Position numbers: made by a program
Part shown: in pieces, positions 21,601-27,600 of the stretch
Numbering within the stretch: position 1 is the first letter of the stretch
How the letters are laid out: the number at the start of each line of letters is the position of its first letter
Source: Escherichia coli
Lineage (GTDB): Bacteria > Pseudomonadota > Gammaproteobacteria > Enterobacterales > Enterobacteriaceae
Assembly: GCF_002854065.1 (NCBI RefSeq)
Contig: NZ_CP024147.1
Direction: 5' to 3' (one strand)
DNA length: 64,000 nt

Positions 21601-24600
21601 GATTGTTCTGGAAACCGGTGAGGGGGTACCACAAAATATCAAACAGGGCGACCGGGTTATTGTAGATCCCTATGTTTATTGCGGTCACTGTTATCCATGT
21701 TCTGTAGGTAGAACTAATTGCTGCGAGAACTTAAAAGTCATCGGCGTACATATTGATGGCGCTATGCAAGAAGTGGTTTCGCATCCGGCTCACTTAATTC
21801 ACAAAATTCCTGACAATGTACCGTCAGAGATGGCGCCACTGGCTGAACCCTTAACTATTGCCCTACACGCATTACATCGAGCGCAATTGAAAGCAGGTGA
21901 ACATGTCGTCATTATTGGTGCAGGCGCTATTGGACTTATGGCGGCCCTGAGTTCGTTGAACTATAAAGCAACTCCCATTCTGGTTGATATTGTCGATGAA
22001 CGGTTGCAATACGCGAAATCGCTCGGCGTACCTTATGTAGTAAACTCCGCAAAAGCTAATGTTATTGAGGCAGTGAAAGATATTACACAAGGGACGATGG
22101 CTCAGGTTGTGGTGGAAGCCTCTGGTGCAAATAGCGCAATCAGAAGTACCCTGGATCTGGCCTCATTTGCAGGGCGTATAGCCTATACTGGTTGGCCAAA
22201 GCAGGAAACATCGTTACCAACTAATCTAATTACCTTTAAAGAACTAGATTTACGTGGTTCCCGTACCAGTGCCGGTGAATTTGAAGAAGCCCTGCAAATG
22301 TTATCAACGCTGAATATTAATCCGGCTGATATCGTGAGCAAAGTCGTGACAATAGATGAAGTTCCTGAGGCTGTAAAAGAGTTAGATCAATTTCCGGAAC
22401 GCTATCTGAAAATTAACGTGAAATTCATTTAATTATAATTAACAAAAATAAAAAGTCTGACGCGTAGTGTATTCACTACGCGTTTTTTATGTGCGCCGTG
22501 ACTGGCGCTGTTCTTCAACTGTGGTGGCTGAAGAACGACTAAGAGGTGAAAGTTCTCCAAACACCCGGTGAGGGGAAATGTTAGCGGAAGGCAAGGATGT
22601 TCATCGCGAGGTGAAATCTGAAGGAAGCCGGATGCAAAATGCTGGCCTGACGAACAGGAAGCGGCTAAGGCGGCACAAATCACCAAAGCCCAATACTCAC
22701 ACGGAACGCGGTGACGTACAGCCGACAGGCATAAGCAGGAAAGTCGTGCGAATTACCCCGGGAGATCTGCCGCTCTGCCAGTGTGCTACCGACGCCGTAG
22801 TAGCGCTGCAAAACCGGCAGCATGAAGGGCCGAACATAATTAACCGTGATTAGGACATCCGAACCCGATGATGATTAATGAAGCATAAACGCAGGCAACT
22901 GCGGCCAGCGGCAGAAGAGACGGACGGCATCCTGAGGTGTACTGGCAATAGCGGACACTACCATTTGTTCTTTTTTTAAGCAGCCATCTGATGATATTTT
23001 TCCCTGAAGGCTGCCGGGGAGATATTCCCCAGACGAGAGTGACGACGCTGACGATTGTAGAAAATCTCAATGTATTCCCGTATTACTGAGATGGCCTCAT
23101 CCCGGCTATTAAAACGATAGTGGCTCAGGCTCTCATTTTTCAGCGTTCCCCAGAAGCTTTCCATCGGAGCGTTGTCGTAACAGTTACCTTTACGCGACAT
23201 TGATGTTTTCAGACCAAACTGCTCCTGGATGACCCGGTAATCGTATGCGCAGTACTGTGAACCTCGATCGGAGTGGTGGATTAGCCCGGCAGGTGGGCGC
23301 TGGCTCCTGAGCGCCATAAACATTGCTTTACCTGTCAGCTCTTTTGTCATGCGCTCTCCCATGGCGTAGCCGACAATTTCGCACGTATAAACATCTTTGA
23401 TGCCAGCGAGGTACAACCATCCCTCCTGTGTGGCAACATACGTCAGGTCCGCCACCCAGACCTGATTTGGTACTGTAGGAGCGAACGTCTGGTTCAGCAG
23501 ATTTGGCGCAACTGGCAGATTGTGGCTCGAGTTCGTAGTCGCTCTGAACTTGCGTTTCTGCTTACAGCGTAGCCTTAGCTCCTTACGAAGACGTGCCAGT
23601 CGGTCACGACCAACGATGATGCCATTCTCTGCCAGCTCCGTCTGGAGCCGCCGGGTTCCATATGTTTCGCGAGTGCTGATATGTGCCACCTTAATCTCCA
23701 GTTTTAGCCGCTCATCACTTTGTTTTCTGTCTGAGGGGTCATGCTGTACCCAGTTGTAATAACCGCTCCTGGATACACCAAATACCTGACACATCGCTTC
23801 AATGGGAAATTGTTGTCGCCATTGTTCGATTAACGCGTATTTTTCAGCGACTCCTGTGCAAAATACGCTGTTGCTTTTTTTAATATATCTCGCTCAAGGC
23901 GAGCTTCATTTAACGCCTTACGCAGTTGCAGAATTTCAGATTCCAGTTCAGCCACCATGCGGGAACCAAGAGTACCGAGCCCTTTTCTGGCGGCGGTAAC
24001 CCATTGTCCTAAAGTGCCTTCAGGAAGAGATAATCGGGAAGCGCCTTCACTGATCGAAAGTTGATTTTCAAGAACCGTTCTGACAGCTTCGGCTTTGAAC
24101 TCTTTAGAGTAACGTTGGGTTTTTCTGCTCATTATTAGCTCCTTCTGATGCCATTCTATTTCAGGAAGGAGTGTCCGTTAAACTCAGGCTACCTCATCCG
24201 TCAGAGCTGCATGATGGCGGCGTGAGAACCTTAGGCATCCCGACAGTGGTGGATAGGCCTATCCAGCAGGCTATAGCTATAGCGCAACATTTAAGCGCCA
24301 TCGTGGACAAAAGCTTCTCAGACTCTAGGCACGGTTTCCGGCTGGGACGCAACGTATGGCAGGCAGTGCAATAGGCACAGCATTATATACGGGGCAGCAA
24401 ACGGTGGGTGGTGGATATAAATCTGGAGAAGTTCTTCGACCGTGTGGATCACAGACTCCTGATGACGCGTCTGGCCAGTACGATAAAGGACAGGCGGGTG
24501 CTGAGGCTGATACGCCGCTACTTGAAAGAGGAAATAGTCCGGGACGGGCAAAGAGAGAAATGGCAGGAAGGCATGCCGCAGGGCGGCCATTGCTGCATGG

Positions 24601-27600
24601 TATCAGGACGTCGTAGAGAACAAACTGAAGCAGAAAGTGAATGAGAAGAAGAGCGCGGTGGCGCGCCCGTGGGAGCAGAAGTTCCTCGGGTACAGTATGA
24701 CATGGCACAAACAGTTGAAGCTGAAAATAGCCCTGACGAGTGTGAACAGGCTGAAGGAGAAAGTGCGCAGTCTGACCACGGGAAACCGGAGCAAATCAGT
24801 GAAAGCGACAATCAATGCCCTGACGCCAGTGCTGCGTGAACCTGTTTAAGATTCTGTGTAAATGCCTTTTCTCAGAAGTGACCGTCCTGGCGGTCACCGA
24901 ACTCGATAATAAAGCGGCTGAACCTGTACATAGATTTGTGTAATCGCCTGATTTTGATATGTTCAATCCAGCATCATATGAAGGTTAATTTATGGATGAA
25001 AAACAGTTACAGGCTCTGGCTAACGAACTGGCCAAAAACCTCAAAACCTCTGAAGACCTCAGTCAGTTTGATCGGCTGCTGAAAAAGCTCAGCGTTGAAG
25101 CCGCTCTCAATGCTGAGATGACACACCATCTTGGGTATGAGAAAAATCAGCCCAGACTAGGAGCTAACTCCCGCAACGGTTATTCCACAAAGACCGTTAT
25201 CACAGGCGACGGTCCACTGGAACTGCGTACTCCGCGCGATCGTGACGGTACCTTCGAACCACAACTGGTAAAGAAAAATCAGACCCGTATTACCGGGATG
25301 GATAACCAGATCCTCTCGTTGTATGCCAAAGGGATGACCACTCGTGAGATAGCTGCTGCGTTCAAAGAACTGTATGACGCAGATGTTTCACCGGCGCTGA
25401 CAGCCGAAGCTGGCAGGCTAACTGGCCGAATCTTGCCACGTTCTTCGCTTATCCAACGGACATCCGCAAAGTGATCTATACGACGAATGCCATCGAGTCG
25501 CTAAACAGCGTGATCCGCCATGCGATCAAAAAGCGTAAAGTGTTCCCGACAGACGACTCGGTGAAAAAAGTGGTGTGGCTGGCAATCCAGTCTGCGTCCC
25601 AGAAATGGACGATTCCGTTGAAGGACTGGCGAATGGCAACGAGCCGCTTGGAACTGTAAATATCACATAGTTTTTGCGCCAAAATACCGAAGACAGGTGT
25701 TCTACAGAGAGAAGCGTAGAGCAATAGGCTGTATTTTGAGGAAGCTGTGTGAGTGGAAAAGTGTACAGATTCTGGAAGCTGAATACTGTGCAAATCCCGC
25801 CCCAAATGAGCGCATACGGAAGTGTTCTGCGCTGGTTTTGCCGTACTCCTTCATGGGCCGGTTATTCATATCCGTCAGTAAATCCCAAAAACGTACATTC
25901 AACGTAAGCATCCGGTGAACTCGCATGGCGCGATCACCGGCGTTATGGCAGGGCGTATTCAGTCCGCCGGATGGCGGTAAGGCAGCAGTTCATCCAGCCG
26001 GGACGCCGTCCATGACGGCAGCTTCTCCAGCACATCTCGCAGCCAGACTACTGGCTCCAGACCGTTCAGCCTCGCCGTGTGCAGCAGCGTCAGCAGCTCC
26101 GCCAGCCGCTCTCCTCCCCGCAGCGAACCCGCGAACAGCCATGACTTCCGCCCCTGCGCCACCGGACGCATCATCTACTCACTCCGGTTGTTGTCCAGCG
26201 GTACCCGTCCGTCATTCAGGTATGTTTCCAGCGCCGGCCAACGCTTCAGGGCATACGTCACCGCACCGTGCAGCCTGCCACCCGGCGCGCTCGTCTTTTC
26301 CGTCGCCCTCAGCCAGCTGTGGAACGCCTCCATCTGCGGCTTCGCGTACCGCCGTCGCCATCGCCATTTCTGCTCTGCCGGACGCTGCCGGATGGTCTGC
26401 TCCAGGATATACAGCGCCCGTATCTGTTTCAGCGCCTCCTTCGCCCCCGGACTGCCGTTCATTCTGTACAGCTCCATGAACTTTCTGCGCACGTGCGCCA
26501 TGCACCCCGCCTCACAGATACCCGGTGCCGCCGGAGGGGCCCCTTCCTGCCCGTCACGGAACAGCGCCCGGTAACCGGCATAACCGTCAGCCACCAGAGT
26601 CCCCGACCACCCGCTCAGCATCTCACACGCATACTGCCCCGCACGCCCCGGACGGCAGTCGTACACCACGATGTCCCGGGCACTGCCCGCCGCACTCACG
26701 TATGCTCACAGGTACCCTTTCCGGACTTTCCCTTTCCGCGTATCCAGTATCTGCAGCGGCGTCTCGTCCGCCTGCAGCACCGGTTGCCTGAGCAGGTCAC
26801 GTTTCAGGGCTGCCGCCAGCGGCGACAGCACCGCCGCCGTCGGCCCGAACCAGTCCGTCAGCGTGCTTTCCGGCAACTGTACCCCTTCACGGGCGTATAT
26901 CTTCTGCTGCCGCTGCAGTGACAGGTGATCCAGCACCTTCGCGGTCACCACCTGCGCCAGCAGACCCGGACCCGGCTGCCCTTTGTCGATGACTGCCGGC
27001 GGCAGCACGGCACTGTGCACCGTGTCGCAGCACGGGCAACTGTACTGCGGTCTCACGGTCCGTTTCACCACGAAGTGTGCCGGTACATACTCCAGCACCT
27101 CATTCACCTCGTCGCGGATATGTCGCATTTCACTTCCGCAGTCCGGACAGGTGCTACCGGTCTCAGGCATGAGTACGGTTTCCTGTCGCGGCAGGTGTGC
27201 CGGCAGGGGGTGACGGGCCGGCTTCTTCCCGGTTTTCTCCTTCACCGGCAGCAGGTCGCTCAGTTGCCGGGTGATATCAGCCTCATCGCTGGCCGCGTCC
27301 TCATCTGCCAGTGGTTTCTGGCTGGCCGGGAGGCGCTCGCTTTTACGCCCGAAGCGCCACTGGTGGGCCAGCTTCAGGGCCTCCTCCAGCTCCCGGATGC
27401 GCTGTTCATATGCGGTTTTTTCTGCCTGCATGGCGGCATTAAGGTCATGGATACGCTGTTCCAGCGTGGTGGTGACGGTATTCAGGTTATGGAGGCGCTG
27501 TTCCAGCGTGGTGTTGACGGTATTCAGGTTATGAAGGCGCTGCTCATATTCGCATGCCTGTGCCGTCAGCAGCGCTGTTGCCAGACGGCGCAGTTCATCG

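Follow-up and report, generated by a model that had tools for sequence, protein, structure and literature searches.

Class C (IIC) group II introns are described in the literature as lacking an endonuclease domain, as being directed to terminators and as priming their DNA copy from the replication fork (PMC4424553; PMC1702495). Among them is E.c.I6, which a published supplementary list gives as ORF class C at positions 4320108-4321914 of CFT073 (PMC3522654 supplement). This CFT073 interval begins with GTGCGCCGTGACTGG after a terminator, as does the intron studied here. The present locus lies in a stretch of 64,000 nucleotides of Escherichia coli DNA (contig NZ_CP024147.1 of assembly GCF_002854065.1), referred to below as the window. 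Positions 22491-24837/24838 very probably represent the decayed remnant of a class C intron of the E.c.I6 family, of which 1,081 of the 1,919 nt (about 56%) have been retained. The kind of intron, its class, its target rule and both insertion sequences at the locus are already described. The identity, class, boundaries and lesions of this particular copy, and the corresponding unoccupied site, come from the analysis reported here.

A reading made from the sequence alone (the sequence-only reading) had proposed a group II intron that starts with GTGCG at 22491 behind a terminator hairpin at 22460-22483, and both elements are present. GTGCG at 22491-22495 corresponds to the group II 5' boundary GUGYG, and apart from a common exon TAT the similarity among five independent copies starts at this motif. 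The covariance-model search suggested for 22491-22932 found domain I: Rfam model RF02001 (group II D1-D4, group-II-D1D4-3) matches 22600-22751 on the plus strand at 89.3 bits (gathering score 32; E 2.5e-17), covering the core of domain I, in which an internal hairpin is shortened. The whole 5' segment (22491-22932, plus strand) comprises the GTGCG end, damaged domains I-III and the beginning of domain IV; it also holds the first 22 codons of the intron-encoded protein, whose ATG is at 22868. The proposed comparison with intact copies likewise bore out the remnant, which aligns over 982-1,075 nt with E.c.I6 of CFT073 and with the intact E. coli copies L001 and L002 at 92.0-93.5% identity. These intact relatives also match RF01998 (D2-D3) and RF00029 (domains V-VI). 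The RF01998 match seen in L002 has been lost from the window through a deletion of 40 nt. No RF00029 match was found in 18000-30000 at E<=1 or in the whole window, and BLAST of the whole window revealed no piece of the 3' intron segment, including beside the displaced half of the target site (30180). Domains V and VI and the 3' AY end are absent; the element is therefore a remnant and not a complete group II intron. RNAalifold on 14 domain I sequences paired nt 3-37 as one long hairpin rather than as the canonical closing stem of domain I; the columns are near-invariant and the data fit both. Three other names were considered and rejected. E.c.I3 targets IS679 according to the literature; E.c.I7 is an attC-type intron (PMC3001079); and the published E.c.I6-tr1 of strain SMS-3-5 is made up of fragments of 168 + 808 bp, unlike this locus.

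The second part of the intron (24200-24837, plus strand) codes for reverse transcriptase (RT), corresponding to residues of about 107-236 and 282-363 of the 462-residue protein of intact E. coli copies. Both RT peptides noticed beforehand, RTLGIPTVVDRPIQQA and DINLEKFFDRVDH, are present, in the plus-strand ORFs 24171-24374 and 24408-24644. About 40% of the protein is kept, in three broken frames and with the YADD motif gone. The class was judged on the intact relative L002, whose protein has IIC RTs as its best structure matches (GsI-IIC 475 bits, 7uim 365 and a third 294), compared with 151 bits for the IIA protein LtrA and 121 for a IIB RT; the E-values are 2.2e-141 for the GsI-IIC RT, 3e-43 for IIA and 4.5e-34 for IIB. 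Pfam detected RVT_1 and GIIM only in the 462-residue protein, the endonuclease domain being absent. This agrees with the class proposed earlier and with the listing of E.c.I6, and the window copy is accordingly assigned to class C through relatives that are 92-93% identical, its own D5/D6 being absent and its ORF incomplete.

The zinc-binding alcohol dehydrogenase gene upstream ends at 22432 and is followed on the plus strand by its intrinsic terminator (22460-22488). The hairpin at 22460-22483 reads ACGCGTAGTG-TATT-CACTACGCGT, with a stem of 10 bp and a loop of 4 nt. The T-run behind it is present as claimed earlier but ends at 22488 instead of 22489, which is an A. A terminator-like site was predicted at 22459-22484, and the folding energy of the 45-nt flank is -17.6 kcal/mol. 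The spacer between hairpin and intron is about 7-8 nt, the mode at 83 related sites being 9-10 nt. The last three nucleotides of the 5' exon (TAT, 22488-22490, plus strand) precede GTGCG in all five independent E. coli copies (the window, L005, L130, L002 and L131) and probably constitute a 3-nt IBS1. Class C introns are characterized by short EBS1/IBS1 and EBS3/IBS3 pairings and by having no EBS2. A comparison, from copy to copy, of the last exon bases with a segment of domain I gave no convincing covariation that would point to an EBS1 partner; the 3' exon, to which IBS3 would belong, has been lost. The host terminator upstream of the remnant was left intact.

The same terminator is found unoccupied in about 50 E. 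coli records. In two such loci that were aligned (L006 and L007), the hairpin is followed by a run of seven Ts and then by a convergent gntR gene; it is a bidirectional terminator there, and the homology of the window to these loci stops at the T-run. The unoccupied alleles read TTTTTTT-AGCG at the junction and the window TTTTTT-AT-GTGCG. Given these different letters, and an identity of only about 89% between the unoccupied alleles and that of the window, the precise nucleotides of the target are deduced. The other half of the split site (...CCTTTTCTGCGCT) lies on the minus strand at 30166-30179, where the homology to the unoccupied loci ends exactly. This half is inverted, is situated 7.7 kb away and adjoins a gntR-family gene (29494-30165).

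Related introns with the same 5' motif in other species follow a hairpin and T-run at 84 out of 84 independent sites. The mean flank energy at the 84 unique sites is -20.1 kcal/mol versus -11.8 for controls (p 5e-37), and positions -9 to -5 are T in 72-80 of them. The five E. coli copies occupy different sites; four are directly behind a hairpin, and the fifth (L131) has no obvious terminator upstream. Together with the unoccupied homologous site this agrees with the insertion behind a terminator that had been proposed. The DNA stem-loop at 22460-22488 is the target of the intron, and the window copy is judged, from its 5' junction, to be inserted in the sense orientation just past it, the 3' intron-exon junction being gone.

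The earlier proposal that IS600 had entered the intron with a TCC duplication was confirmed. A complete IS600 (IS3 family, 1,264 bp, orfA and orfB intact) lies on the minus strand at 22933-24196 and interrupts codon 22 of the intron ORF. From end to end it shares 99.1% identity with elements that bear the annotation 'IS3-like element IS600 family', and in RefSeq its ORFs are labelled IS3 family transposase, produced by a programmed frameshift. TCC flanks it at 22930-22932 and 24197-24199, and this is a true target duplication because intact introns carry a single TCC (...GGTATCCGTCAG...). No IS600-free or fuller intron allele was found at the site among 5,426 complete E. coli genomes.

The replacement of the 3' part by the end of an IS256-family element was correctly recognized as to the family, the element being specifically IS1414, but the junction lies at 24837/24838 and thus 18 nt before the 24856 that had been given. 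The intron is truncated at the outer terminus of IS1414, and G24838 can be assigned to either element. The inverted right end of IS1414 (nt 1234-1314) occupies 24838-24919 on the minus strand, its outer terminus adjoining the intron; it is followed at 24920-25649 on the plus strand by the left part (nt 1-481 and then 994-1241), with an internal deletion of 512 bp. Eight bp of IS1414 (1234-1241, AGCCGCTT) are common to both pieces. The pieces are 94-99% identical to IS1414 of ETEC H10407. Region 24838-25649 is derived from IS1414 but is not a complete element, which would measure 1,314 bp, be bounded by terminal inverted repeats and be flanked by a target duplication of 8 bp: it consists of fragments only, rearranged and internally deleted. 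The 82 nt at 24838-24919 had been considered as an alternative domain VI on account of a common ACTCGAT; the alignment identified them as the inverted IS1414 right end.

The layered insertion history put forward by the sequence-only reading was upheld and gained more layers. Compared with L002, the 5' segment has lost 19 nt near its 5' end and, further on, 18 nt behind 22677 and 40 nt behind 22788. In the RT-coding part, 261 nt deleted after 24212 take out RT0-RT1, 6 nt are inserted at 24271-24276, 130 nt deleted after 24588 remove motif 4/5 including the YADD active site, and a single nucleotide is deleted after 24610. The copy thus carries six indels besides the 19-nt gap, and in addition two premature stops (TAA at codon 7 and TAG at 24372). 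Its end falls within the maturase (X) domain, the last 375 nt with the C-terminal maturase half and domains V and VI being gone. With domain V missing and the RT destroyed, neither splicing nor mobility is to be expected, and the copy is therefore an inert fossil.

Since the window itself shows domain I only, and the diagnostic domains V-VI and the 3' exon have gone, the remnant might be imagined to come from a homing-site intron of another class that lies beside a terminator by coincidence. This is highly improbable in view of the close identity to copies whose endonuclease-free protein is nearest to IIC RTs, the listing of E.c.I6 in class C and the terminators that precede all 84 sites of introns with the same 5' motif. 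That the RT fragments belong to a retron, a DRT or another non-intron RT next to an unrelated structured RNA deserves hardly any credence. Short RT motifs do occur in many RT families and the intact relative weakly matches retron and DRT models. However, the latter matches are far below the cut-offs of those models, and the three window fragments, which line up in order with the ORF in domain IV of intact copies, match TIGR04416 (group II intron RT/maturase; NCBIfam) only; the retron and DRT models of NCBIfam gave no match to them at E<=0.01.

It may also be asked whether the remnant has been co-opted, with small ORFs (24444-24644 and 24637-24849, hypothetical proteins) or a post-terminator RNA serving the host. 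The block is conserved at 99% identity or more in 140-165 records, and both ORFs are called by RefSeq. Nevertheless, co-option is very unlikely: the ORFs are parts of the RT gene that are out of frame and marred by stops and deletions, the near-identity of the block fits a recent common origin of the island and not selection, and the remnant sits behind an intact terminator amid many other dead IS fragments.

The 19-nt gap at the 5' end of this intron, GTGCGCC[GGGCATGGCGCGTAGCGCC]GTGAC, recurs. It was found at four hairpin sites (the window, CFT073, plasmid L130 and the MAG contig L028) on different sequence backgrounds, and L001 has a 17-nt variant of it, whereas 85 of 85 copies from other species retain the 19 nt. 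One tentative and rather doubtful explanation, which would make the gap more than local decay, is that a ribozyme without one arm of the 5' quasi-palindrome was still mobile, or that the RT slips across the 5' hairpin during retromobility and so produces copies that are dead on arrival. Alternatively, replication slippage may have occurred recurrently after insertion. A mobile gapped ribozyme or a deletion made by retromobility would, if true, be a small new point on the biology of IIC introns.

The history of the locus can be pictured as follows. An intron of the E.c.I6 family would have retro-inserted in sense orientation a few nt past the stem-loop and T-run that end an MFS-transporter/alcohol-dehydrogenase operon, in a genomic island at the argW tRNA. 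According to the literature on active members of the class, the excised intron RNA and an endonuclease-less RT/maturase would form an RNP. This RNP would recognize the DNA hairpin of the terminator together with just a few paired exon nucleotides, in this case probably TAT, and reverse-splice into the hairpin strand, and a DNA copy would then be made from a replication-fork primer. Decay would have followed through indels, stops, the entry of IS600 into codon 22 and the cut by IS1414; the order of most of these events, like the mechanism of mobility, we infer. About 3% of complete E. coli genomes carry the whole composite, inherited as a single block.

The meaning of these results is mainly one of annotation. 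RefSeq leaves 22491-22932 blank and calls the RT fragments 'hypothetical protein', where 'E.c.I6-family intron pseudogene' would be a more accurate label. The locus is a textbook case of how class C introns pick terminators and of how, in a genomic island, insertion sequences wear retroelements down. It agrees with what has been published on the extinction of group II introns in Enterobacteriales (PMC3522654).

Judged by its nucleotide identity (92.0% to CFT073 and 93.5% to L002) and the common 19-nt 5' gap, the window copy clearly belongs to the same family as E.c.I6. With the E.c.I6 of CFT073, which is located in the selC island after grpO, it shares the 5' end, the site behind a hairpin and TAT. 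It differs in its insertion site, in IS600 and the cut by IS1414, in five extra deletions and in the loss of D5/D6; in the CFT073 copy 1,807 nt remain, D5/D6 among them, and the deletions are confined to the ORF. The intact introns of E. coli virulence plasmids (for example NZ_CP040454.1, 1,919 nt, ltrA of 462 aa) are 93.5% identical and collinear in the retained segments and also follow a hairpin. Unlike the window copy, they possess a full 5' end, a full RT/maturase ORF and domains V-VI and are potentially active. B.h.I1 of Bacillus halodurans and other studied IIC introns resemble it in being downstream of an inverted repeat and Ts and in having an RT without endonuclease domain (PMC1702495; PMC4424553); they are functional models from another host and lineage, whereas the window copy is a fossil. 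The RTs of GsI-IIC and of the Eubacterium rectale IIC intron (PDB 6ar1, 7uim), the best structure matches to the family protein over nearly its full length, are homologues only. The IIC-attC introns (S.ma.I2 and E.c.I7) have a ribozyme of the same class (PMC3001079) but target the bottom strand of integron attC sites, whereas the window copy stands in sense orientation behind a Rho-independent terminator.

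The sequence at 22491 belongs to a group II intron. A covariance-model search for group II domains gave, within 22491-22932, a match of Rfam RF02001 (group II D1-D4-3) to 22600-22751 with one internal hairpin shortened (89.3 bits, gathering score 32, E 2.5e-17). Of 5,426 complete E. coli genomes, 1,217 were shown by DNA searches to carry related copies, as do many plasmids; some of these copies have an annotated ltrA gene. Two plasmid introns, L001 (CP056605.1) and L002 (NZ_CP040454.1), were taken as references. The intact L002 intron is 1,919 nt long (locus 3480-5398), encodes a 462-aa ORF and matches Rfam models for D1 (139 bits), D2-D3 (RF01998) and D5-D6 (RF00029). 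After removal of IS600 the window copy aligned collinearly with L002 (93.5%), L001 (92.5%) and the copy of strain CFT073 (92.0%). Both comparisons bear out the sequence-only reading, which had proposed an intron remnant here; the two reverse transcriptase (RT) peptides it quoted were both located in ORFs on the + strand.

The class of the intron was assessed from its family and its protein. The supplement to Leclercq and Cordaux (2012; PMC3522654) lists E.c.I6, CFT073 4320108-4321914, as ORF class C. That interval opens with GTGCGCCGTGACTGGCGCTG right behind the grpO terminator hairpin, and these first 20 nt are identical in the window intron. Among RTs of solved structure those of IIC introns were closest to the L002 protein (GsI-IIC RT 475 bits, E 2e-141; 7uim 365 bits; 5hhj/5hhl about 290 bits), as against 151 bits for the IIA protein LtrA and 121 bits for a IIB RT. 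Pfam recognized RVT_1 and GIIM but no endonuclease domain in this protein, which scored 413 bits with NCBIfam TIGR04416. Of the NCBIfam models, the three RT fragments of the window matched TIGR04416 only (E 2e-12, 5e-21 and 4e-8) and none for retrons or DRTs; grouping with non-intron RTs, which would have spoken against an intron, was therefore not seen. Class C introns are described (PMC4424553; PMC1702495) as being without an endonuclease domain, targeting intrinsic terminators and using replication-fork primers.

The 5' end reads as had been described. The zinc-binding alcohol dehydrogenase gene (21407-22432) is followed, 27 nt past its stop codon, by a stem-loop at 22460-22483 (10-bp stem, 4-nt loop), which the terminator scan recovered. 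Ts run to 22488, then come AT and, from 22491, GTGCG. The 45-nt flank before the intron has a folding energy of -17.6 kcal/mol. Base 22489, two positions before the intron and within the presumed IBS1, varies among carriers (TTTTTTAT in the window, TTTTTTGT in strain AMSCJX02).

Three lines of evidence, all in favour of the proposed insertion after a terminator, indicate that this hairpin is the intron target. In about 50 E. coli records, L006 and L007 among them, a homologous operon carries the same hairpin and T7 run with the 3' end of a gntR-family gene, convergently oriented, directly behind them, and the homology of these two unoccupied loci to the window ends at the T-run. Five E. coli copies occupy different sites (the window, grpO in CFT073, a fimbrial usher gene on plasmid L130, an HTH gene in L002, and L131); four of the five lie directly behind a hairpin and all have TAT immediately 5' of GTGCG. 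A sixth, L001, is also behind a hairpin, but has CATT before GTGCG. Finally, scanning one genome from each species for the 5' motif yielded 84 unique upstream flanks of introns that share it. Their mean folding energy was -20.1 kcal/mol versus -11.8 kcal/mol for random flanks of the same loci (Mann-Whitney p 5e-37), and T occupied positions -9 to -5 in 72-80 of them. The spacer after the G/C stem is usually 9-10 nt in related sites and 8 nt in the window.

Several E.c.I6-like copies on E. coli virulence plasmids (L001, L002, L130) are found just behind terminators of fimbrial or adhesin loci, their neighbours being an Agg4/Hda major subunit gene, an adjoining Afa/Dr adhesin cluster and a fimbrial usher gene. 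In the window the gntR-family gene, convergent with the dehydrogenase gene in unoccupied loci, is inverted and 7.7 kb away (29494-30206 region). Homology to the unoccupied site stops exactly at 30179 (...CTGCGCT), the base adjoining the terminator T-run; the intron 3' end is not attached to this displaced target half. Next to it lies a 26-nt stretch of unknown origin (30180-30205), followed by what we take to be an IS4 left end.

IS600 (22933-24196; 1,264 bp, 99.1% full-length identity to the annotated element) has both ORFs intact on the - strand. It is bordered on both sides by TCC, present once at that point in intact introns, in agreement with the proposed target duplication. Alignment against L002 defined the other lesions. 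Deletions remove 19 nt after the first 7 nt of the intron, 18 nt after 22677 (domain I hairpin), 40 nt after 22788 (domains II-III), 261 nt after 24212 (RT0-RT1, with GATGG microhomologies at its ends), 130 nt after 24588 (taking out ...PLSPLLSN...RYADD...) and 1 nt after 24610. In the ORF, which starts at 22868, TAA replaces codon 7; 6 nt are inserted at 24271-24276 and a TAG stop stands at 24372. The last 375 nt are lost, and with them D5, D6 and the maturase domain's C-terminal half. In all 1,081 of 1,919 nt are retained, and neither D5/D6 nor a further intron piece was found anywhere in the 64-kb window. Because of these losses the element, judged from its sequence, cannot splice or move.

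The 19-nt gap (GTGCGCC^GTGAC) is common to four copies, in the window (22491-22510), CFT073 (L005, 309), L130 (about 2502) and a MAG contig (L028), which have different hairpin sites and sequence backgrounds and are all otherwise dead. L001 has a 17-nt version (3497), and the 19 nt are retained in 85 copies from other species. In the full form nt 3-37 can fold as a 15-bp quasi-palindrome with both arms beginning GCGCC, a structure at which slippage would probably be frequent.

The 3' cut was analysed with IS1414 of ETEC H10407 (1,314 bp, 8-bp duplication gttgggtt) as reference. The sequence-only reading had placed the junction at 24856, which lies inside the IS1414 inverted repeat. The real cut is at 24837/24838, where the intron meets the outer terminus of the IS1414 right end (nt 1234-1314, reverse complement, 24838-24919); G24838 is compatible with either element. 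The IS1414 body follows on the + strand from 24920 to 25649, so that the order at 24838-25649 is reverse complement nt 1234-1314, nt 1-481, nt 994-1241. The right-end piece has exactly 8 bp (nt 1234-1241, AGCCGCTT) in common with the truncated body. As this is the length of the IS1414 target duplication, self-targeted (intramolecular) transposition with inversion may explain the arrangement. In L001 (5338-5420 region) the intron, whose 462-aa ORF is intact, has a 70-nt IS1414 left-end fragment 4 nt beyond its 3' end, a second, independent adjacency of this intron family and IS1414. Another right-end fragment (nt 1074-1314, 90% identity) occurs in the window at 36599-36839 on the - strand.

At 99% identity or more the 5' part matched 165 records, the 3' part 152 and the stitched query 140; in none of the 5,426 complete E. 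coli genomes was an allele without IS600 found. RefSeq has no feature annotated over 22491-22932 and labels the RT fragments 'hypothetical protein'. The host island begins at tRNA-Arg(CCT) (2593-2667) with a tyrosine integrase (2593-4033 region) and holds many dead IS fragments around the remnant. Directly after the truncated IS1414, a short fragment at 25667-25792 (...YREKRRAIGCILRKLCEWK...; 'transposase, incomplete' in RefSeq) appears, by its likeness to the IS200 TnpA sequence, to come from an IS200/IS605-type transposase. A strong Rfam isrC match (150 bits, 30703-30825) falls inside an annotated IS3-family element (30670-31883), and this 'sRNA' is therefore probably IS sequence. Three - strand ORFs at 11270-17094 equal in length the DEAD/DEAH helicase, ATP-binding protein and TerB N-terminal-domain genes annotated in AMSCJX02, and are possibly a defence-type gene cluster.

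The intron remnant with its IS600 and IS256-family end is confirmed as observed and supported as interpreted, with the 3' junction corrected and more lesions than had been stated. All its components are of a known kind: the intron family has a name, the class and its target rule have been described, and both insertion sequences are known ones. Only side points are mildly unusual, namely the 5' gap of 19 nt that recurs among copies, an IS1414 that overlaps itself and the displaced target half.
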